Positions 2,762 to 62,154 of a DNA stretch of 64,000 bases are shown here, piece after piece (position 1 is the stretch's first letter; each line of letters begins with the position of its first letter). Below the pieces are notes generated by a model, which did no database searches, was not told where the DNA came from, and saw nothing but the letters and a program-made list of their open reading frames with translations. Origin of the DNA: Vezdaea acicularis (lineage: Eukaryota); contig JAPEUI010000086.1 in NCBI GenBank assembly GCA_026025075.1, positions 1 to 64,000 on the forward strand, in the 5' to 3' direction. A program made the position numbers and the translations under genes.

Positions 2762-3896
2762 TTATACGAGTAATGGTTCGCAACACTACGGACGCAGTTT
2801 TGCGAGCGGTTTGTTTTGATCGTTTCTTGAGCGAGTGCAATGGGAGGCTTTTGTGCTAAGGCCTCACACACGCGCTATATGGCCGCCTTTGCAGCCTCTG
2901 CAGTCGGTATGGGATATATGGCTAGCGTCCTCTGAAGAATGGGTCTTAGTCCTTCTATAATAAATACCCATCATGCATTTATCTTGCTTATTTTCTTACG
3001 CTAATTGTACTCTAGCTCTCAAGTCTTGAGTCTTCATAGAAGGATAAGAATAAAGGAGCTTCTGTCTTGTATATGTGCGGAAAGCGAGGTCCCCTAAAGG
3101 AGTGCAACGTTAATCCCGTAGGTGCCGAATCCGGGCCCAATGACCATAGCCAAGTAGGTCAAGAAAATGAAAACATGAGGAGAACAACGCATCCTTCTTT
3201 CCCCCCCATGGCCTACAAATCAAGTAGTGATTCTGGAGGTGCTAACATTGGCAGCAGGAAAGATGGAGCTTCAATGGAGGAAAGGCAGAGCTGGAAGTTC
3301 AAGATGTCTGTGGAGACTGGAGAACTTCGAGAGACTGGCGTTGCTTATTGGTTCTCAACGAGAAGAATCTAAGTTCGCTTTCTGCACGTGCCTTCCTGGC
3401 TGTATTGCTACTACCTCTGTTGGTGTACGAGTTCAAGCTTCCTAAGTACAGATCAGGAAAGAGGCCACGGCTTTGATAGGCAGTCCCTACCATTTTGATA
3501 GCTACATAGTTCGTCCACAATTCTGCCAACATTCAAGCTGAACATCCACATCTTTATCTCGATCATCTTTATCTTCGAGAAGGAAGCGTATCTCTAGCGT
3601 TAATCCACCATCAGAGCCTGAAGCTTAGTACTGAGGTCTTCGGTTTTAACACAAAAGTTCATCCCTAGGTCTGGCCACTCTCAACTTAAGCTCGCTCCAC
3701 TCATTCCTCAGCGGGGTCATCAAGGCGAGGTTTGCATCTGTTATTGGGGCAAGAGAAAGTCCTATCTTCCTGTCTTCCCCGTAGGTTCCGTAAGCGCGTC
3801 GAAACAGTTCAATACTGATGTGTGAGACATCAAGAACCGTTAATTCGACACGACCGAGTCTAAAGCAGTCCGACCGCTGCATATCAATCAGTTGCC

Positions 3897-4721
3897 ATGG
3901 CTCCAACCGGGAAATTTCCGGCACGGCCTCTGCCATTTCGTCCTGCGAAAACCGATTATAAGGTCGCCCCTGGATCCAAACTGATACCCTCCTCACCAAA
4001 CTTACCTGTCCGTCCGGCAAAGGTCTACCCTAAGACGCCCGTCCCTTCTTTAACGGCCTCCCCGCCGGTATCTTCTCGCCCCACAAAAGCTTGCCCCGGG
4101 ATGCCTCCATTGAAGCAGAAGCACTTGGCTGAAAAAAGAACCTCTAGCAAACGAATCCAAGAGGGGCTCAAGAGTGCTCGTAAGCAAGTCATCAAGCGAT
4201 TGTCTATGACGTCCCTCAAACGGAAAGCCAGTACTGAGCATGAAGCATCTCCTCCTGGTAAGAGAATGCTTAGTGAGGATGCTTCTGCATCTCATGCTTC
4301 ATTGAAACTGGAGGAGACTCTCGGCAGCAGTTCAAGCCAGTCTACGACAACTAAAGAGCGTCTTTCTGAAGATTCTTCTCACTGGAAGTACTTGGAGCTT
4401 CTCAGAATGGGCTGGCTACATGCGGATGATACTGTTTCCGATCATTTGGGAACCGTACAGCATTCGGTGTACGGAAGATTCAGAGACCAAATTGGGCACA
4501 TCAAGCACCGTGCCAAATCTCTTGAAGCTGGCAGTCCTGGGAGCTTTTCAAGTTTGACTGACTGTTCAAGCCCAGCTTCTCTGGGCAGACCCTCACTAGA
4601 AACCGTGGGAGAGTGCACCGTTGTCGTACCTTGTGCGTTGCCTATCCTGGCTCCGTTCGACTGGGAAGAGAAGGAATACATTGTCCCAACCTTGCCGCTT
4701 GAGGAAAACGTTCATTTGTAG
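3897..4721 (+). CDS. Hypothetical basic/Pro-Ser-rich protein (274 aa)
   Basis: ATG ORF in good context (GCCATGG) with NLS-like LKRK/GKR. No recognisable domain. Confidence 0.5.
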   Translation: MAPTGKFPARPLPFRPAKTDYKVAPGSKLIPSSPNLPVRPAKVYPKTPVPSLTASPPVSSRPTKACPGMPPLKQKHLAEKRTSSKRIQEGLKSARKQVIKRLSMTSLKRKASTEHEASPPGKRMLSEDASASHASLKLEETLGSSSSQSTTTKERLSEDSSHWKYLELLRMGWLHADDTVSDHLGTVQHSVYGRFRDQIGHIKHRAKSLEAGSPGSFSSLTDCSSPASLGRPSLETVGECTVVVPCALPILAPFDWEEKEYIVPTLPLEENVHL

Positions 4722-12084: not shown

Positions 12085-13096
12085 CCAGCCCTATTCCTTT
12101 GACCTCGCCTGGCCGAGTGCTTTCATAGAATATCATATGTAGGTTGTTGCCGCCTTCTCGTGAGTCAGCACATGGGATTATGAGCTTGCGCTCGTCGAGT
12201 CTTGACCTGCAGTTTGGCAAGGCCAGGTCAGCAAAGCAATAGGGTGGGGAAGCTGTACACGAACGGACCTCTAATATATTGGGATTATTACTCTAAAACG
12301 CTGGTCACCAAGGAAGCCGGGGAAAAGATACTAAGGATCAAATGGGGAAAATTATGCCACGCTTCGCACACACACAAAATCGAAGAGACGAGGTCAAAAT
12401 AAACGGGTGCCGGAGAGGGATATTGATTGACGGTGAGGCGGAGAAGGACCGGGATATGTGTGAGAGAGCGGCGCGCGGCAATATGAAGGGATTTGCGAGG
12501 ATGGCGGACGGAAAGCAAAGATCCTCGAGGGTTCGGGGGGAGTGTGGGGGGGGTCTGGGTGTGTGGGCGCCAGGTTCGGAGACGAGGCGACTCTTTAAGG
12601 TGACAGAGTTGTGGGTGTAGTGGGCTGGCCGATCGCTGGCCCTCCCGGCCACGCCTGGCGCCACCAGGTGGATCTGAAGCTGGACTAGGAAGAAACGAGA
12701 GTAGGACGACGAAGTGATGCCAACGCCCCTGAAAGCCGAGCACAGGATGGCTTGATCAGGCCTAGGAAGAGTCAACCAGCTGCGCACCGTTCAACCGTCG
12801 TGCGAAAGTGGAAAAAGTCAACTGTTGCGCGGATGGAAATAGAAGGGGAAGGGGACAGCAGGTGCCTCGTCCGTGGTCGCTGGTGTCGCTGTGCAGTGAA
12901 ATCATACGCTAACCACGCTGGACACGGGTCAGCCCAGGGCTGTGTCTGCAGCACGCATCGCGCTACAGTGGGTTGACGACCCTGGCCACGCCCGTCCAGA
13001 GCGCGCCTGTCCCGGAGCCAGAGCCCACGGGCGCCTCTCGCAGGCTGGCGGGCCCGCCGACGCCGTTGGTCCTTGCGACAGATGCGCGATGCCATG

Positions 13097-18488: not shown

Positions 18489-19307
18489 ATGCCAGACTAC
18501 AGTTCATTGAAAGTTTCAGAACTGAAGAAGATCCTCCAGGAACGATCCCTCGCAGTATCTGGCAACAAGCCAGACTTGATCGCGCGCCTAGAAGAAAACG
18601 ACCATGCATCAGCGGCTGCTCCTACACAAGTACCCTCAACTGCCCCAGCAAAAGTTCCAGCGCAAACAGACGACGAGATAGACTGGGGAGATGAAAACTC
18701 TGCGGAGGCCGCAAGGTCTACAAACGCTGTGGTCTTAGAAGCTGGAGATGGTGGACAGGCTCCTAAGCCAGTGGCAGCACCCAATCGAACAGTCGATGCA
18801 GATCCACCCAAAACCTCCGATCGAAGTGTCAAGGAGCCAGACAATGCCACTACTACAGAGGGAACGGGCAACGGACAAACAAAACCAGCCGTCAACTTCA
18901 CCGCCGGACTCGAGAAAACAGATTTGGAGAAGGAGCTGGAGCGGCGTCGAAAACGCGCCAAGAAGTTTGGGCTGGACTTGACTGAGACAGACGAAGCCAC
19001 AGCAAAGGCTCTAGAACGAGCTAAGAAATTTGGTACGGAGGCGAGTAGTGGAAATACTCTAGTTAAAGGCTTGGATCAAGCTCTCCCAGAGAGGGGTGGG
19101 CGCAAAAGGGAACGGGGCGACGAGGGGAGTACAGAACGGGAAGGAAGTAAGCGTGGGCGCGTCGAAGGAGCAGATCGTGATAAGAGAGTGCAAAAGCCCC
19201 AGGCTGGAGGTAAAAAGTCTGCTCCTGCGCTAAAGAAGGTTACCGATGATCCTGTTGAGAAGGCTAAAGCAGAGGCCAGAGCTAAGAAGTTCGGCACAGT
19301 TAAATGA
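18489..19307 (+). CDS. THO1: SAP-domain ribonucleoprotein (Tho1/Mos11/CIP29-SARNP family)
   Basis: N-terminal SAP domain YSSLKVSELKKILQERSLAVSGNKPDLIARL. Repeated RAKKFG motifs are characteristic of the Tho1/MOS11 C-terminus. Confidence 0.9.
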   Translation: MPDYSSLKVSELKKILQERSLAVSGNKPDLIARLEENDHASAAAPTQVPSTAPAKVPAQTDDEIDWGDENSAEAARSTNAVVLEAGDGGQAPKPVAAPNRTVDADPPKTSDRSVKEPDNATTTEGTGNGQTKPAVNFTAGLEKTDLEKELERRRKRAKKFGLDLTETDEATAKALERAKKFGTEASSGNTLVKGLDQALPERGGRKRERGDEGSTEREGSKRGRVEGADRDKRVQKPQAGGKKSAPALKKVTDDPVEKAKAEARAKKFGTVK

Positions 19308-20496
19308 ACATCCGAACTTAAGGTTAGGCTTTCATAGTTTTTTATAATGTTCTTGTAGCGTTTGAAAGATAAGGGAGATGGATCTGGAGGGGCGCTTTGT
19401 TCAAGAAGAATTCTGGCACAAAAATGTACTATCACATCTCGTATCAGTTCGTTGAGCCTCATGGTACCACATGATGTACGGTGGTTCTCGCGGGTCTCAA
19501 AATGGCTGAGGAAACCCTTTATAGTCTAAGAGCTATACTAGAATCTAAGCTATCAAACGCAAGGCATTGAAATCCACGCTTAACAACTTTAAGTAAGAGA
19601 TTAGAAGCATTCAGGTCTGATATAAAAGTTGGTGACCGGTCCGAAACGAGTTACGCGCTTACTTGAAAGGTGCTAGCGCCCGTATGAGGCTGAGTTAGCT
19701 AGATGTGCGAAGACCACTGGAGGCTGTCCAGCGGGGTCATGCAAAGGCCAACCATCGTCTGACCGCTCCCTTCTTAATTTATGCCATCGCAAATGATATT
19801 GTTACTATTATGATCTAAACTGAAATCGTCAAAATAGTTGCGGCGCGTGCAACCCCAGGCCAATACGACTGGCCTCTTTCGATCTCCGACAACGGCCCCC
19901 GAACCTTGCGCCATATCTGTTTTGACATCGAATAAGGCTGTGAATTGGCAGCAGACATTCGAGGCCATCGCTGGGCTACCCTAAGGTCTTGCTCTCCGAT
20001 TTGTGGACGTCAAAGTTCGTGAGAAAGAGCCATTGCAGTCTCCTTAACCTTTCAAGCCGCTTGAGGCTCTTACGGTGTTCGCAAAGACTCGATCGTATGT
20101 CCCCATGATCCAGCACTTCACAGCCTGGAGCGTCATAAGCCTTGCTAGCCTTGCATACGAATCTTGTAATGAACCATAAAACTGACAACAACATGACAGG
20201 GAGGCTACCTCTTGTGGCTAATGCCATCCATGCCCAAGAGCTGGAATTCAACGTTATTTGTTTTAAAGACACGCGGAATTAGTGTGAAAAGTGGACAACA
20301 AAAGAGCACTTTCTTGTAAAAATTTCCGTGTCAGCAGTTTTAAAAATCATCATTCGCACAACACTCGGTGTAGGACGTCAAGGTCTCTGGGGGCCTGAGC
20401 ATATATATCTCAGTTGGGAAGATTCAGATAGGAGTTATCGACTGCCAGTGCGGAGAGGCGGTCCCCCCCTCTTCGGCGCTGACATATTCGGACAAA

Positions 20497-22111
20497 CTGG
20501 CGGAGTACTGGGACGAACAATTTAGCCTTAGGGACAATAATACACCCCCCCCTCAGGCTATCAAACCAAACCTCACACCTGTTGAAAGCCCAGTACCTTT
20601 AGTGAATCAAAGGGCGTCACCCGAAAGCGTCAGTCCTCCATCCTCACAGACGGCGAGGAAGAAGTCTAATCGTCACAAGACGCGATCAACGCAAGCTGAC
20701 GCCGTCCTCCTCCGTTCCCTCGGTCCACAACATCCTGACGTCGCGCGAGTGGGAGGGGAGCGACCTCTCTCACTTGGGGAGGAGTCCGAGGCTGGCGACT
20801 CAGGGGACGATATGGATGGGACGGAGGAAGGGCCAACCACATCTGAAGCTCCAAAAGATCCAGACAAGGAAAGTCTCCGGCACCTTGCGCTGCAAGTCTT
20901 GTCGAGCTCTCAGGATGCATCAAAACTCGAGGCTCAATCGTCATTAGAGACACAGCAACGCTCCTATCCGAAAGATGCAATAATAGACAGGACTCTGACA
21001 AACAACAACGTCCCGGCAGTTGCCGCTGAGACTCTTCTCACACTGAAAGATGACACTTCACCCAGGCTCAAATCTGAGATGCATAGCCTGAGGGTGGGCT
21101 CGCCGATACATCGTGAGAATGGCCTTCCCCCATTTCAGCCATCCAAGGACCAGAAGCTGGCCGCCATCCATCCGACATCGTTTTCTAACGGCGAATCATC
21201 CGGCAAGCAAGAGCGGCCGAGTCTACCTGGTATGCGGGAAGTGGGTCTCACAGAGGCAGCCCAGTGCGTAGACGATGTTGCAAATGGGAGATTACAACAA
21301 AACGCAGATCGGCGATACCAGCAAGCCCACTCACCATACAATCATCTTGATCATAGATCACCTCAGAGCACTTATAGTAGACCTTCTCCTCATGAAGGTT
21401 ACCGTAAGATAGGCGATGCGAACAGCCCCCAGTCCCATGCACCAAGCCCTTACTATGGAAGAAAGCCGTCTCATCAACCAGAAAACAATTCATACTCAAC
21501 AGCGCCGCCTGCTGAGAGCCCATATCCGACAGCTCCTTCGACAAGTAACGAGCCAAGCAGTGTCGAGGCATTCAGTCCAAGCATAGGCTCGACTCCTGGT
21601 GATAGGATGGATCTGGATGGCCAAAACACTCGTCAAGCTCGGCAAAATCAACAGCAGCCTGTAGCACCAGGCGGCATGGGCTACAAGTGCGACAACCCAG
21701 GTTGTACCGCTCCGCCATTCCAAACGCAGTATCTGCTCAACTCCCACAAGAATGTCCACTCGCAAGCGCGGCCACACTACTGTACGGTCCCAGGGTGCAA
21801 TCGAGGCGAAGGAGGGAGAGGGTTCAAGAGGAAGAACGAGATGATACGCCATGGGCTAGTACATTCATCACCGGGCTATATATGCCCGTTCTGTCCCGAT
21901 AAGGAGCATAAGTATCCTCGACCAGATAATCTTCAACGGTATGTGTTACATATACTGTGTTCACTAATATTACTCTCTAACGATGATCAGACATGTCCGA
22001 GTTCACCACCTGGATAAGAAGAAGGATGACGCTCAGCTCCGCGACGTCTTAGCGCAACGCCCTGAGGGCGGACACCGCGGACGGCGTCGACGTTTAGGTG
22101 CAAGCAGCTGA
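20497..22111 (+). CDS. C2H2 zinc-finger transcription factor (exons 20497?-21938, 21991-22111); start uncertain: candidate CUG at 20497, first AUG at 20812
   Basis: Three fingers: YKCDNPGC..FQTQYLLNSHKNVH, HYCTVPGC..FKRKNEMIRHGLVH and YICPFC..YPRPDNLQRHVRVHH, the last completed by GT-AG intron 21939-21990. The frame is open from 20374. Confidence 0.9.
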
Positions 22112-42399: not shown

Positions 42400-45300
42400 T
42401 TAATCATCGAATGCATATATCCATGTGCCAACGTTGATTGCGAAATCAGCCAGCACTTCGATCAGTATTGTCATGTTCTTCTCTTCCAAGGGTGTGGGCT
42501 CTCTCTCGACCACCACCCATATCCCTTTCCGTCGCACAAGCTCCTGCGTGATATCTATGTCTTCTGTCCGGAACGTTTGGGGGTAAGTCGTGAAGGTGCC
42601 ATCGCCGCTGGACTTAAGAGTCCTTCTCGTTGGACCTCGTCCGTTCTCAACGGAAATCCGCATTGGCGTATGTGGTGGGGCAGTATGCCATCCAAGACCT
42701 GCGGAGCCTGGCTTGTTCGAGGTAGGAACATCACTCCCCCAACTTGGAGCCAACGGCAGCACCTGGTCAGTGGGTCTTGGCCTGGGTGCACCTATCACTA
42801 CCAAGCCTGTATCTTCTGAGTAGCCAGTGAACGGGCGTCTGCCATTAAGTCTCCAAGGATCAGCTTTAGGCTCTGGAATCAGATTCGACTTGTTGATTGA
42901 TATGGCTCGCCCGATGAGCTTCAGCCGCGTTAGGCGCTCAGGTGAAATAGGGATGATTGCCCGGTCAAACCCGGGGCGAAGTGTGACGAGTGGAAGTTGT
43001 ATAGTCACGCGACCGGCGTTTTCTGGCAGCAAGGGGCTAACCTCAAATTCCACATCTGACTCAACGCGGAGAGTGAATTTGGCTAATTGACGTGGCTCCC
43101 ACGTTGCGCAAACAATCGTATATTTCCCTGGTTCAACAGCGCTGATCTCGGCAAGAGCAGACCCTTTACGATAGATGCCTGATTCACCCACAACGTTATT
43201 ACGAGTCACAGTTGTAACCCGCAAACCGCCACTCCAGAAGAGTGCCACGTTCACCGGGATAAGGTCTTTATCTGTAGCGTGACTATCAAGGAGTAAAGTG
43301 ACGTTGGCCTTTCTCTGTACGGCGAAGCTAAATTGTGGATTGGCCGCATAGTGCACGCTCTCTGCCCTGCCACCCGAGGTCGATCTCTCCCATCCAGACT
43401 TGAGAATGACAGAATGAGCCAATGCTTGTGGCGCTGATTCAAGCATAACATGTCCCTGGGAGAATGCTGAGAGTGTAAAATTATATCTACGGGGCTGTAG
43501 ATCCAACTGCTGAGCAACAATAGTGTAACATGTATCAGCCGGGATGTCGACTTGGACGAGAGTTTGCGGCGCATCAACAAATGATCCACGATGAACAGGG
43601 CTTTCATTCAGAGCCACTCGTTTTCCTTTCTTGTCAAAGACATATATGCTAATCCAGCCGCTTCTTTCTCCAAGCTCATTGGATGTTTGCGGCTTCTTGA
43701 AATCTTGATCGGGGCGCCCCTTGCCATCCAGGTATCCGCGAATCCGCTTTCCATCATCAGTGCAGTAATGCCGGCTTAGCAAAAGCCAGACTTGATCAGC
43801 GGATCTTGACGTGGAGACCAAGAATTGGGGGTTGTTGATCAGACAGGTAGAAGATGTGACATCATCCGTTAGGTCCCAAGCAAAGTGTATGTCCTGTCGT
43901 TCCTGGAATAGCGCCGGGTTCCAATTCATATGAAAGACGTGGAAGAACTGGATCACGTTCTTAAGATCTATCCAGAAGGTGCCTGGACTTGACTTCTCGT
44001 TGAAAAGCGATAGGTCATGGATTGTCTGGCTGATTCCTGAATCATCCTCCGAGATCTTGCTTCCTTTCCATACTGTGCCCTCTATCCCAGGATTCTTTAA
44101 AAGAAACCTTTTGCTAGAGATTGTTTCTCTCATATCCAGGACGGCATAGTCATGCTCACTCGCCAAGCCCGTGCCTGCTTCAGCTTCAGGGGTGATTCTT
44201 CCGGTGCCGACAGTGATCAGGACATTTCCATCGATGAAGCTAGTATATACACGCTTCCAGAACTCCGCCAGGATCAGACTTTCACTAGAAAATGATAAGC
44301 CTCGCCTTGGAAACTTTTAGGTTTCTAATCAGGGAACACTCACCTTGTCATATGTATAGTTTCGGGTATCCAACCGACCAGGGCCCAAAGATCCGTTGCC
44401 GAGTTACTCCCAGGGAAGTCATACCCACCTCGTATTTTAAGATACGCCTTTTCAACCAAAGCGGGCCATACAAGAGATCTGTTATTACGATCAACAGTAT
44501 GGATTTGCCGGTGGGTACGGGAAGATGGAAGTCGATCGTCTATCACCACCTTCCGATCGCAGCCGTTGAAATGAAGTCGGAAGACATATTTTCCATTTGG
44601 TGATGGCACGAAATCATCTTTGAGCCGGTCATATGGCCAGACCGATGCCGATAATATCTATCGAGCTTAGCACTAGCAGTGGTAGTGGCAAATGGGTCAG
44701 GTTACCCTGTGGTGACCGCGTTCTGTCCTCGATATTTCACAGCAGATGCCCGCTACCACGGAGCAGTCCGTATTCAGATCTTGAACCAGATCAACGTCTT
44801 GCCGTGCTGAACTGCCCCTCATTTGAAAATTTTCCCTGTCTCTATATCTTATCCATCCTCCAAAGGATTCAAGCTGCTTTGGTGACAAATTCATGTCAAA
44901 GCCATCTCTACAGCAGTCTCATGTCAGCATTGTGGAGCAAGGTTGATAACTGTACCCACAAAAACAGATCTGCTCCCTCCACCAGTGCAAATTCATCGTC
45001 TATAGGATCATCTTTCCAAGGAGGAAAGAGGTGGCCATGCAGCTTGGCACTTTGCAAAAGTATGATCTGCTCTTTTTTGGACAATTCTCGTGAGGATCGT
45101 GGCCCCCTAGGTCCCGACCTTGAGATGGTCTTCATTTTTGAATCACCAATGCCATCACATGGTCCAAAGCGCTTGATACAACCACTTGCGTTGAGTTCCG
45201 TGAAAGATTTCTCTGCTTGCTTGACAAGCTCCGCTTTTTTCAGTACTTTTGAAAAGTTCGTCCTAAGACGGTCTTTCTCGGCTCCGTCTTTCACAAGCTC

Positions 45301-56267: not shown

Positions 56268-58056
56268 ATGTCTTCCTCTTCTTCTTCGTTTTCCGTGGAC
56301 TATTCCACAGTCCTGCCTGAGTCCCGCTGGAATCAGCTGGCACGGACGACGCTGGAGGGGTTTGCGTGGTTTAAAGAGATGGTGATGACTTTGGCGGAGA
56401 GCAGTGCGCAGGTAAGTTTCCAATACAATTTGCATTACTCAAGAACTAACAAACGATTTAGGTCGCAACTGGGGGGAAGAGCCGGCCAGGAAAGCCGACC
56501 AAAGAGAGTCTCATTGCGGAGGCAGAGCGTCTGGCGCTCTTCCGAGAACAGCAAGCTCGAGATCTCAGAGAGGTCGCGGGCTTGTTAAAGGGGAAAGGGG
56601 CGCCTAAGAGGAAACTTGACGTCAACCAGTTCCTCAATGAGCTGTGCGACAGCGAGTTACAAGATGACGATCTGTTTGTCATCCAGCTACTCGAGCCTGT
56701 CGCGGCAGAGAGTCCCGACGCTCTTCTGTCAGCTGGGGAGGAGCAGGAGGAGGAGCAAGAGGAGGAGCAAGAGGAGGAAGAAGAGGTGCAGGCACCTGAA
56801 GAAGATGAGAACGAGGAAGCCAGATCCTCCGAAGAAGATAACGACGATGAAAAGGACGGAGACTATGACTACAACGAGGCCTTCAAGCCTGTGAAAAAGA
56901 GGGCGACGACAAGATCCACCACCAAGGTAAGTGATTCTATAGAGGATTCCTTACTTTTATACACATACTAACTGACGTCGAAGAAGGCTAGCAAGAGAAA
57001 GCATGACGGTGGAGAAGAGCAAGACGTTGCGCAGGCTGGTCCTGCATCAAAGCGCGTCAAGTTGACTCAGAAAGGCAAAGGGAAGCGGAAGGCCGTCGAT
57101 CAGGACGATACCGAGTCCGAAGCCGAGCCTCCCTCGAAGCGGGCCAAAGTAGTCCCAGAGCCTGACCCAGAGCCTGAATCGGAGCCTGAGTCGGAGCCTG
57201 AGTCGGAGCCTGAACTAGAGTCTGAAGTAGACCTTGATTCAGAGCCTGAATCAGAGTCCGAGAGAGAGCCTAATCCAGAGCCTGAAACAGAGGCTATCCA
57301 AGACCCTCCTCCGGTGAGTTTTCCCATTTGGACGTATGTAAGAGGAAATGCTGACTAGCTTAGACCAAGTCCGAGAATGGTCAGCGATGGAGCCCTAGAG
57401 AGCTCGAAATAGTTACCCGCGAATTCAAGAAGATCGTGGAGGGCGTTACTCGCGACTCGAACGGCGACCGAGTCTGGGGGGAACGTCGCTGGGACTTGCT
57501 CGTGAAGATCATCCGAGCACCCCCTCATAATCTTGATCGCTCCGTCGGCGCAATCAGAGGAGTCTGGCACCGAGGACTCAGAGAAAAGTCGGGCTTTGAC
57601 GAGCGCACCTATACGCCGGCCTTCCCAAACGGCGGAGCTAAAACAGGGCGCAAGGGATCAGGACGAAGGGCAGCTATGCCCAAAGAGGAGGAGGAGAAAG
57701 CAGAAGAAGCCTTGGTGGACACCAAGGAGGCCGCCAAGGAGGCCGCCAAAGATCCTGAGTTGGGGCTTCGGGGCTTCGAAGATGGAGACACCTTGGTCGA
57801 AGAGGACTCGGTGCCTCAGGGCTTTCAAGATGAAAGTACTTTGGTTGAAGAAGACCAGGGGTTGCAAGTCTTTGAAGACGGAAATAACCTGATCGGAGAA
57901 GACCCGGGGTTGCAGAGCTTTGACGACGGGAATAACTTGATCGGAGAAGACTTCGGCTATATGGCCTTCGGAGACGAAAGAAACTTTGTTGAAGAAAATT
58001 TCGGGATCGTTGGAGATCCTCCGATGTTTGTCAGACCTGGAGAGTATACCTTCTAG
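56268..58056 (+). CDS. Acidic orphan nuclear protein with a Myb/SANT-like domain and tandem repeats; exons 56268-56411, 56462-56926, 56984/56987-57313, 57364-58056
   Basis: Three canonical phase-0 introns (GTAAGT/GTAAGT/GTGAGT donors, CTAAC/CTGAC branches) join the ORF-track pieces into one frame. Basic NLS clusters are present. Confidence 0.8.
57155..57290 (+). repeat. Coding 6/12-bp tandem repeat (GAGCCTGAGTCG-like) encoding a (PE/SE)n tract
   Basis: PEPDPEPESEPESEPESEPELESE...EPESESEREPNPEPE. Confidence 0.85.
57760..57999 (+). repeat. Coding minisatellite, five degenerate 48-bp units (16-aa repeat)
   Basis: LGLRGFEDGDTLVEED / SVPQGFQDESTLVEED / QGLQVFEDGNNLIGED / PGLQSFDDGNNLIGED / FGYMAFGDERNFVEEN. 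Confidence 0.85.
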
Positions 58057-58430
58057 GGATTGGGGGAAAAGATAGTGACGAGGAAACTCAAATAAGGGGG
58101 AATTGTAATGGAACAGTCTGGACTAGTTATTTAGACAAAGAGGAATTGGCTGGTACCAGTTGCCACCGTGGGCGTTGTTGCTGTACCATATCGATAGAAA
58201 ATTTAATTTATTCATTATACTAATCGCTCCTTCACCTCGATTACTTGCGCTGATAGCTTCTGCCTCTCATGTGCCTGAGCTCTCGGTAAGTGGACCAATC
58301 ATGAATAGCCCTCGTCTCTTCTTGACCGTGCTCTGATTCTCCCATCACTTTTACTCCACATTCACCTCTCGACTTCCTTAAACTCATTTCACTATTCACA
58401 TGGTAACATCAATAGTATATCCTCTCGGCC

Positions 58431-60644: not shown

Positions 60645-62154
60645 ATGTCGGCCTTGGATTCTGCCGCAATACTGGTTGCCAGGTTCCTGCAAGCCAATCA
60701 TTACAATGAGGTATGAGGGCCGAGCTTCTTTTAAACACCTGGACTAATTAACCCAAGATGTCTGCCAGACCCTTGACGCTTTCCTCGTCGAGGCCGGACT
60801 GCCGCCCGATGCAGGGTTGGTTCGGCCTGGAGATCTCACGATTGAGAAGATACTGGATGAGAAAAGGGTCTTTGACATGAGCGTGCAATTCGAAAAGGTA
60901 AGGTTTGACAACGACATCGACAAGCCGTGGAAGACACCGGGTAAGCCCAGTCAGGCGTAATAAAATGAGCATTATTTCTGAACTATTGCAGTTCCAGCAG
61001 TTCCAACTATTACGAGCTCGATCTCTTTACCTGCCAACTTCCTTCATGTCTCCATTGAATTGATTGATAGGTTCAACGGTGCCAGCAACCTAAATACTCA
61101 TTACCTCCTGGCAACAACCGCAGACCGATGCTTGCACGTCCTCAGAGCCACCAAAGGTTATGCTCGTGAATGGTCATTCACGAACTTGCATGACTCACCT
61201 ATCCTGGCATGCGCTGTGATCAAAAGTCGGTATCTGGTCAGCAGCTGCATGTCTGGCGAGCTCACGCTCACTGATTTGTGGGACACCCATGTCATTGCAA
61301 CCCGCCGCGACCACTCTAAATACGTGGTGAAGATTGCATTATGGGAAGCAAGTGGGGGAGCATGGATTGCGAGCGCGGGATGGGATAACAAGATATTCAT
61401 CTACTGGACATCTCTCAGCGACAACGCTCTTAGCCTCAACGCTCCAAGATCAGTGATCACGCTACCCTCGAACCCTGAAACAGTCCTCTTCATACCCGAC
61501 CCAAACGAACGGGTGATTGAATCGACTCCTTTTTTACTTGTCTCACGACGCGACTCGACGAAGTTATACTACTATAGCCTTCCTCCTACTCAAGGCCTCC
61601 CTCATTCCGAACCAACCGAGCTTCCCCTCCTCGGGACACAAAACCTCTCTCCCCAATCCAACGCCTGGCTCGCTTTCTCTCCCTCCAGTATCGCCCTGTC
61701 GCCCCAAAATCCCTCTCTCCTCGCCATCGTCACCTCGAGTACGCCCACGCAAAAGCTGCTCTTCGTGCGAATCCTCCCCCCCGCTTCCCCAACGCCCGCA
61801 ACTACTTCCCTAACCCGCGCTCAGCAGACGGCGCTGGAGAACCGTCGCGAGGACGCGGAACTTGCGGCGATCCTCTCGCACACCTCGACGGGTGCGACAC
61901 AGACCAATTGGTCGACGCCGCAGGTGTGCTGGCGCCCGGATGGGAGCGGCGTATGGGTCAATGGGGATGATGGCGTGGTGAGGGGTGTGGAACTTAGGAG
62001 TGGGCGCGTGGTGGAGTACTTAAGGGGTGGGCATGAGCCGGGGGCGAAGGTAAGGGGGATATGGAGTGGATGGGTTGACGGGTGGGAGTGGGTCGTTAGC
62101 GGAGGATTTGACAAGAGGTTGGTTGTTTGGAAGTGTGAGGAAGACGTAAGCTAG
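60645..62154 (+). CDS. LisH + WD40-repeat protein; exons 60645-60710, 60769-60940, 60992-62154
   Basis: LisH-like ILVARFLQANHYNE|TLDAFLVEAG. WD repeats ASAGWDNKIFIY and VVSGGFDKRLVVWK. Confidence 0.88.

Follow-up and report, generated by a model that had tools for sequence, protein, structure and literature searches.

A C2H2 zinc-finger gene of Vezdaea acicularis probably translated from a non-AUG start codon

Conserved N-terminal extensions initiated at near-cognate codons have been described for the Neurospora crassa transcription factor gene cpc-1 (Ivanov et al. 2017, mBio, PMC5487733). In that study, the cpc-1 extension is conserved across Pezizomycotina, the conserved codons include CUG, AUU, and ACG, the context positions that matter most are A at -3 and G at +4, and near-cognate initiation was shown in vitro; the AUG-started protein is the main and complete one, and the extensions are controlled together with a pair of uORFs (open reading frames located upstream). 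A CUG start, conserved in a relative, has also been proposed for another fungal transcription factor, a bZIP protein that belongs to a different protein family from the C2H2 gene described here. Leaky scanning generates alternative N-termini in fungi, with ACG, AUU, and CUG starts in Cryptococcus (Wallace et al. 2020, NAR, PMC7049704), and the cases presented there mostly concern the mitochondrial dual targeting of tRNA synthetases. RNA structure is involved in START, a structure-assisted non-AUG initiation in which a hairpin reportedly lies downstream of the start codon (PMC11165317).

The gene that we analyzed lies on the forward strand of the first 64,000 nucleotides of contig JAPEUI010000086.1 of Vezdaea acicularis (assembly GCA_026025075.1), a stretch hereafter called the window. 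Judging from its sequence, it spans positions 20497 to 22111 and would encode a 520-aa C2H2 protein whose translation most likely begins at CUG 20497, a reading in which we place somewhat better than even confidence; overall, the start is probably a non-AUG codon. As in cpc-1 (PMC5487733), a fungal transcription factor has a reading frame that continues upstream of its first AUG and contains no in-frame AUG in that part. Unlike in cpc-1, the near-cognate codon, as known from sequence, holds the start position of the family itself, which is ATG in other classes, and initiation at the first AUG would delete conserved motifs. The combination of a weak first start with an in-frame AUG, which may produce two N-terminal forms, resembles the cases reported in PMC7049704 but, unlike in those, what would distinguish the two forms is a conserved region, regulatory or NLS-like, of a transcription factor. 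CUG 20497 would be read as methionine by the initiator tRNA, favored by its strong context (A at -3, G at +4), at what would be the start site of the whole family, encoded by ATG in other ascomycete classes and by CTG or GTG in lichen-type lineages. 40S subunits scanning past this codon would start at AUG 20812 and yield a 415-aa form devoid of the N-terminal motifs and the basic patch. The approximate isoform lengths given in the first-pass annotation agree with ours, since the joined segments 20497-21938 and 21991-22111 code for 520 aa, and for 415 aa when counted from ATG 20812. CUG initiation, the presence of two isoforms, and a role for the leader hairpin discussed below are candidate features, and a ratio of the two isoforms that depends on initiation stringency is purely conjectural.

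The coordinates of the gene and its parts are given in Table 1. With an E-value threshold of 0.001, 984 proteins are similar to its product, the best named matches having 33-41% identity across 80-95% of the query, and the nearest Atlas cluster has a score of 0.98. The family corresponds to uncharacterized Pezizomycotina C2H2 zinc-finger proteins, with source names that include 'C2H2-type domain-containing protein'. Similarity is full-length, comprising the C-terminal finger block (82% identical in the finger region) and the N-terminal motifs. A Pfam search with the exon-1 translation recovered no family at E<=0.1, zf-C2H2 included; since the Cys and His columns are nonetheless invariant in our alignment A1, the fingers appear to be atypical, and the sequence-based placement of the gene in the C2H2 family is by homology rather than by Pfam.

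Table 1. Predicted features of the C2H2 gene and its upstream region in the window.
Feature	Position	Strand	Remarks
Possible uORF	20221..20319	+	Two ATGs (20221, 20230) sharing one frame; 32 codons; TAA 20317-20319
Upstream in-frame stop TAG	20371..20373	+	Polymorphic: P0002 (other assembly) has Leu there
Open unconserved stretch, most likely 5' leader	20374..20496	+	14% identity to orthologues
Predicted leader hairpin	20446..20481	+	Purine-rich 5' arm, pyrimidine-rich 3' arm; -23.1 kcal/mol, z -1.93
Proposed CUG start codon	20497..20499	+	Context aaa-CTG-gcg; aligned sites in other lineages
ATG-less conserved N-terminal coding segment	20497..20811	+	105 codons; profile match E=5e-24
First in-frame ATG	20812..20814	+	Context gat-ATG-gat; conserved acidic block; possible 415-aa short isoform
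Exon 1 of proposed 520-aa CDS	20497..21938	+	Zinc-finger region begins near 21676
Intron	21939..21990	+	52 nt, phase 2; GTATGT ... CAG; position common to family
Exon 2	21991..22111	+	Ends at stop TGA 22109-22111

A recount of the sequence agrees with the first-pass annotation on several points: the main frame, closed by the in-frame TAG, is open from 20374 and meets its first in-frame ATG 146 codons later, no ATG occurs in any frame from 20233 to 20811, and CTG 20497 stands in the context gac-aaa-CTG-gcg, with A at -3 and G at +4 (for CTG 20479 it is gcg-CTG-aca). On the forward strand, the ATGs at 20221 and 20230 are followed by the next one at 20812, which leaves the longest gap of this strand in the window (582 nt), where 8.3 ATGs would be expected from base composition and 5.1 under a first-order model. 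Other long ATG gaps in the window measure 560 and 514 nt on the forward strand and 732, 702, and 661 nt on the reverse strand, and 2 of 31 distinct AUG-started orthologous loci likewise contain no ATG in their first 315 nt (mean 4.1). Taken alone, the ATG-free stretch is weakly unusual and constitutes weak evidence, and the ATG depletion previously regarded as a signal shows no clear excess for this gene family. The 32-codon ORF that begins at 20221 is not joined to the main frame and would be a uORF only if the region is transcribed.

The evidence for coding comes from conservation. We built a profile HMM from 36 orthologues, leaving this gene out, and searched it against the 1304 six-frame ORFs of the window. 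It matched this ORF only, over residues 48-142 (nt 20515-20799, E=5e-24). Seven columns of the ATG-less part (P58, P73, D109, V111, L112, P121, and L132) are invariant across 37 sequences, and mean identity to orthologues is 36.7% in this part versus 22.8% in the middle of the protein. The product of 20497..20811 carries a Y-W-D-E-Q motif, the basic patch RKKSNRHKTR, an A-D-A-V-L block, and a P-D-V-A-R block. By these sequence comparisons, the ATG-less part is real coding sequence, and the first-pass suggestion that it encodes protein with an N-terminal motif of the family holds; the claim that the region departs from chance stands for the open conserved frame and is weak for the ATG desert, given the comparable gaps elsewhere and the two ATG-free orthologues. 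P0002, a near-identical protein of another assembly, also reads D-K-L-A-E-Y-W and, therefore, the leucine is not an assembly error.

These data bear on the alternative that AUG 20812 is the only start used, for a 415-aa protein, and that the upstream frame is an untranslated relic left after the loss of an ATG. This AUG has a good context (G at -3, G at +4), 21 of the 24 A1 sequences that are neither from Leotiomycetes nor from Sordariomycetes have a Met within a few columns of it and in the same acidic block, and the YDSDD motif has diverged to Y-W-D-E-Q in this gene. A relic, however, is hard to reconcile with 105 codons that have no stop or frameshift, that retain the seven invariant columns, and that are better conserved than the middle of the protein; moreover, the SNPs that distinguish the metagenome loci L071 and L073 in the ATG-less part are just two, both synonymous. 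The same ATG-less layout is found in L023, L071, and many lichen proteins, so that it has been kept across a long divergence instead of resulting from a recent loss. We consider exclusive use of AUG 20812 extremely improbable.

The proposed start site itself could be compared as DNA in three lineages, namely the window, L023, and L071, since among 79 metagenome loci only L023/L024 and L071/L073 qualified as lichen-type DNA. The codon aligned with CTG 20497 is found as aag-CTG-gcg in L023 and aaa-GTG-gcg in L071, so that A at -3 and a GCG after the near-cognate codon are present in all three DNA sequences, a small sample. No in-frame ATG occurs between the upstream stop and the motif in L023 or L071, and, reading on from the stop of L071, the GTG is the first near-cognate codon met in frame. 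Among 39 readable related proteins, the residue at the site is L in 28 and V in 11, the preceding one is K in 38 and N in one, and the next one is A in 38 and D in one. The K-[L/V]-A signature is thus found in 37 of 39, and the remaining two (N-L-A and K-L-D) retain A at -3 and G at +4; all 39 imply a purine at -3 and G at +4, and the residues immediately upstream are variable. ORF-caller predictions add to this: the first M of P0142 corresponds to the GTG of L071, that of P0146 to a TTG of L023, and eight further ORF calls start precisely at the K-[L/V]-A site. Conservation of the CUG, which had been put forward as a check, is borne out insofar as other lineages show CTG, GTG, or ATG at this position in the same strong context.

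Upstream of this site, sequence comparison suggests that the open stretch 20374-20496 is probably an untranslated leader: its identity to orthologues is 14%, a value based on the only seven sequences that overlap it, versus 37% downstream. Codon usage cannot separate this stretch from coding sequence because, of 1183 null windows free of stops, 25% reach its score (0.106 bits per codon). A single nucleotide string, read in frames 1 nt apart, accounts for the leader peptides of P0170 and P0171 up to approximately two codons before the K, and therefore the lichen leader is conserved as nucleotides and not as a reading frame. Translation could also begin further 5' in the open frame, at one or several non-AUG codons, giving a product of at least 526 aa, and the candidate near-cognate codons are CTG 20479, ATC 20437 (with G at both -3 and +4), ATA 20428, ATT 20422, and CTG 20395. 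The frame that contains them is open from 20374, its codon-usage score is compatible with coding, and Teloschistaceae proteins have some in-frame similarity in the approximately 12 codons upstream of the site, so that some lineages could have a start located more 5'. Against this, L023 and L071 contain no counterpart of any listed codon, L071 has no in-frame near-cognate codon between the stop and the GTG, and CTG 20479 sits within the 3' arm of the predicted hairpin; the low identity upstream of 20497 also counts against it, and the frame shift between P0170 and P0171 argues against a leader translated in a fixed frame. A more upstream non-AUG start in this gene appears highly unlikely.

A methionine could also be supplied by a short first exon, as yet unseen, made of an ATG and a few bases located in 19308-20373 and spliced upstream of 20506, with an intron that would be weak, non-canonical, or long and so missed by gene predictors and by our enumeration. 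Tiny first exons are easily missed. We enumerated models joining an ATG exon through one GT..AG intron of at most 600 nt over the whole intergenic region, which gave 112 open spliced models, then 93. Ten of the 93 use a GT[AG]NG donor, in every case the GTGTGA at 20282, which has the G at +5 that is also seen in 40 of 44 donors of the shared 3' intron of the family (a comparison of the donor side only). A CTRAY branch site located 8-50 nt ahead of the acceptor is missing from all ten, so that no model out of 93 combines both signals and, as regards the spliced ATG exon that the first-pass annotation had envisaged, for example from 20221, the models have no ordinary splice signals. An exon starting from Y-W-D-E-Q was also considered, with its acceptor at 20505 and CTGAC 20479 serving as branch site, and rejected: the donors that fit are all poor and no AG occupies the equivalent position in L023 or L071. 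L023 does contain a candidate mini-exon, formed by ATG 3866 and a single further base, with a GTACGT donor and an acceptor at 3953, that would yield M-P-T-T-K-L-A; it has no branch site, and the ATG and donor are not retained in the relative P0163 according to a manual alignment. No acceptor position or phase is common to the models of the window, L023, and L071. In addition, over the 8 codons upstream of the K, the genomic ORF calls P0155 and P0178 run collinear with P0038, a transcript-derived protein spliced at the 3' intron, and a spliced exon would leave the constant L or V between K and A unexplained. We regard such an exon as unlikely, and initiation at CUG 20497 as the preferred reading.

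The leader preceding this CUG contains a predicted hairpin whose 3' end lies 15 nt before CTG 20497, and its counterparts in L023 and L071 are spaced by 16 nt. The leaders of 29 AUG-type loci are far less structured than these three NUG-type leaders. In a consensus fold of the three sequences, the stem of the window falls out of register and a double change is seen in only 1 of the 12 pairs, hence there is no covariation support for the upstream hairpin. It is conceivable, albeit distinctly unlikely, that several lichen-forming and allied ascomycete classes swapped AUG for CUG or GUG aided by a conserved leader hairpin with its 3' end 15-16 nt upstream of the start. With an NUG in the P site, a structure at this distance lies approximately at the mRNA exit of the 40S subunit, where the re-formed hairpin might act as a backstop that keeps the scanning complex at the near-cognate codon. 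Such an element would mirror, on the upstream side, the downstream-hairpin effect reportedly described by Kozak, and would represent a new class of cis-element for non-AUG initiation. If functional, a hairpin at a fixed upstream distance would provide a testable element for the selection of weak start codons. As reported for START (PMC11165317), a near-cognate start is found together with a stable local hairpin at a fixed distance; unlike in START, the hairpin is upstream, ending 15-16 nt before the NUG, and none is conserved approximately 14-20 nt downstream. A conserved downstream hairpin was sought by folding the first 100 nt from the NUG and discarded, with z-scores of -2.0 in the window and +1.4 and +1.9 in L023 and L071, respectively, and no shared stem. 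An 'upstream hairpin' associated with a non-AUG start did not appear among the best literature matches, which is no proof of absence.

If CUG 20497 is indeed the start, this gene would add a comparative example, and a well-defined one, of a fungal transcription factor that relies wholly on a near-cognate codon for its full-length form. The presence of ATG, CTG, or GTG at one site in different classes would then mean that the site records start-codon turnover. Near-cognate starts are usually inefficient, and this fits oddly with a conserved domain reliant on one. On the practical side, we tallied 37 species-named gene models of lichens: 24 are devoid of the conserved N-terminus, a deficit probably due to predictors requiring ATG, and another 11 reach it only via unconserved upstream methionines.

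The reading frame under study, in a fungal window, opens at 20374 (+), directly after a TAG, and runs to a short intron. By sequence similarity it encodes a C2H2 zinc-finger protein belonging to an as yet uncharacterised family of Pezizomycotina: a homology search with the product retrieved 984 proteins at E ≤ 0.001, and the best species-named matches, mostly named "C2H2-type domain-containing protein", share 33–41% identity across 80–95% of the query. A Pfam search of the product gave no match, yet a family alignment of 37 sequences shows invariant Cys and His columns. P0002, a near-identical protein from another assembly, begins at GTG 20368, written M by the ORF caller, and reads Leu at the TAG at 20371–20373, so this upstream in-frame stop is polymorphic. 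The PalB-like ORF of the window also has a near-identical counterpart from another assembly (P0207), and near-identical proteins turned up in such public assemblies alone; the identity of this ORF to Sclerophora, Chaenotheca, Candelaria, and Leotiomycetes, where the best named matches are found, is only 37–43%, which points to an ascomycete lineage without a close sequenced relative.

Features of the window and of the orthologous metagenome loci L023 and L071 (NUG, CUG or GUG at the proposed start site; hairpins are predictions)
Feature	Sequence	Position	Strand	Details
Tho1/SAP-domain gene	window	ends 19308		followed by intergenic space up to the zinc-finger frame
32-codon ORF	window	20221–20319		opened by ATGs 20221 and 20230, ending TAA 20317
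Intron	window	21939–21990	+	52 nt, GTATGT...CAG
Second exon, short	window	ending TGA 22109–22111	+	
PalB-like ORF	window	42400–44316	-	
Long ATG-free gaps	window	61380–61940, 3304–3818	+	within the 514–732 nt range
Long CAT-free gaps	window	12171–12903, 18607–19309, 57526–58187	-	within the 514–732 nt range
Leader hairpin	window	20446–20481		-23.1 kcal/mol, z -1.93, 15 nt to NUG
Leader hairpin	L023	3923–3948		-25.4 kcal/mol, z -2.15, 16 nt to NUG
Leader hairpin	L071	2693–2715		-19.8 kcal/mol, z -1.53, 16 nt to NUG
Mini-exon candidate	L023	3866–3953		in-frame ATG, one base, GTACGT donor, CAG acceptor 84 nt on

The first-pass annotation had proposed that translation starts at a CUG within an ATG-less but protein-like part of this frame. 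The frame indeed runs for 146 codons before its first ATG, at 20812, and after the ATG at 20230 no further one occurs in any frame until 20812, over an interval in which 8.3 would be expected from base composition and 5.1 under a first-order model. This desert is nevertheless a weaker signal than claimed, since other gaps in the window reach 514–732 nt and, among 31 distinct ATG-started orthologous loci, the first 315 nt (mean 4.1 ATGs) contain none in two, and the first 210 nt none in six; the Ser/Pro-rich N-terminal region is simply ATG-poor. If transcription begins 5' of ATGs 20221 and 20230, the 32-codon ORF that they open would be a uORF.

Evidence that the ATG-less stretch is coding comes from its conservation. 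When 36 orthologues, excluding the gene under study, were combined into an N-terminal profile, this profile matched the zinc-finger ORF alone among the 1304 six-frame ORFs searched across the window (residues 48–142, nt 20515–20799, E=5e-24), entirely upstream of ATG 20812, and this part includes seven invariant columns in the 37-sequence alignment. Mean identity to the orthologues, with residues numbered from 20374, is 14% upstream of the CTG (residues 1–41, where only seven sequences overlap), 36.7% from the CTG to the ATG (42–146), 22.8% in the middle (147–434), and 81.9% in the zinc fingers (435–522), so that conservation sets in close to the CTG. Within the ATG-less part, L071 differs from L073, a copy 99.7% identical to it, at two positions, both synonymous. 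That only the AUG is used and the conserved N-terminus is a relic therefore seems very improbable to us.

A scan of metagenome contigs yielded 79 orthologous loci, 50 of them with an N-terminal region detected by profile. In most of these 50, the profile match, which starts at the Y-D-S-D-D motif, is preceded at a distance of a few to ~20 codons by an in-frame ATG. No such ATG lies between the motif and the stop upstream of it in two lichen-type sequences: L071, and L023 together with L024, a near-identical copy. At the proposed start site the window has gac-aaa-CTG-gcg, L023 acg-aag-CTG-gcg, and L071 ttc-aaa-GTG-gcg, so that a near-cognate codon is conserved in all three. A manual alignment equates this position with the ATG found in other classes, with Eurotiomycete-type M-x-x-D-I-Y-D-S-D-D, for instance, matching Teloschistales V-A-A-D-I-Y-D-S-D-D. 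In 39 proteins retrieved with a lichen-type profile, the site is L (28) or V (11), preceded by K (38) or N (1) and followed by A (38) or D (1), which implies A at -3 and G at +4, the very context confirmed for CTG 20497. Eight ORF-caller proteins, in which M is written for ATG, GTG or TTG, begin exactly at the site.

Initiation at another near-cognate codon further 5' is a rather remote prospect. CTG 20479 has G at -3 and A at +4, and the first M of the ORF-caller protein P0146 is a TTG in L023; that of P0142 is the GTG of L071, which has no further in-frame near-cognate codon between its stop TAA 2681 and this GTG. Residues immediately upstream of the K-[L/V]-A site are variable in the 39 proteins. 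Up to ~2 codons before K, the leader peptides in P0170 and P0171 can be derived from a single nucleotide string read in frames 1 base apart, indicating that the leader is conserved as nucleotides without being held in frame. These two proteins differ by a 1-nt indel directly before K-L-A.

An upstream ATG could instead be supplied by a missed exon. Within the intergenic space from 19308 we listed every model in which an ATG and an open first exon are joined, through a single GT..AG intron of 40–600 nt, to the frame without a stop. There were 112 such models with acceptors up to 20559, and 93 with acceptors before 20506. At the 3' intron shared by the family, 40 of 44 donors, read by position alone, have G at +5, and a GT[AG]NG donor occurs in 10 of the 93 models, all sharing GTGTGA at 20282; none of these 10 has a CTRAY branch site 8–50 nt before the acceptor. 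This lack of ordinary splice signals makes a spliced-in ATG exon unlikely. The mini-exon candidate in L023, which would encode M-P-T-T-K-L-A if spliced, has no branch-site consensus, and its ATG and donor are apparently absent from the relative P0163.

The stretch is conserved as coding sequence and has no ATG, the NUG is conserved along with its context, and ordinary splice signals are lacking; from this we infer, with moderate confidence, that some scanning ribosomes start at CUG 20497 and others at AUG 20812. Initiation at the CUG, in its strong context, would produce a 520-aa protein; ribosomes passing it would meet no other AUG before AUG 20812 (G at -3, G at +4) and would produce a 415-aa form, devoid of the N-terminal motifs and basic patch. 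Both lengths agree with those first proposed. ATG 20812–20814 (alignment column 219) sits in a conserved acidic block, and 21 of 24 non-Leotiomycete, non-Sordariomycete sequences have a Met within a few columns; what is conserved here may be an internal start, or the residue alone. The closest known case is Neurospora crassa cpc-1, for which the published account describes a frame extending upstream of the AUG without in-frame AUG, conserved near-cognate codons and -3/+4 context, and near-cognate initiation demonstrated in vitro (PMC5487733). In the zinc-finger gene, by contrast, the near-cognate codon occupies the family's own start position, and a start at the first AUG would deprive the protein of conserved motifs.

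In all three ATG-less DNA sequences the leader is predicted to form a hairpin whose 5' arm is rich in purines and whose 3' arm is rich in pyrimidines (energies in the table are for folded 54–58-nt segments). Folding of the 60 nt that precede the NUG gave -25.2 (window), -23.9 (L023), and -19.8 kcal/mol (L071), compared with a mean of -11.7 (sd 3.6; strongest -20.0) for 29 AUG-type loci, a comparison uncorrected for base composition. The stop-free arms help to explain the open frame upstream of the CTG and the recurring "P-P-S"-like peptides. A consensus fold of the three sequences had no covariation support, and no common structure was found downstream of the NUG. Any novelty may lie in this predicted hairpin at fixed spacing, which may have some role in initiation.

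The conserved N-terminus is absent from 24 of 37 species-named gene models from lichens or allied fungi (tallied by hand among P0124–P0194), which start at a downstream Met directly before the basic patch (17), further downstream (6), or use another exon (1). The pattern resembles a systematic artefact of annotation that insists on an ATG start. Eleven others reach the motif via non-conserved upstream Mets, and two (Pycnora and Trapelia) have an ATG within 2–4 codons of the site.
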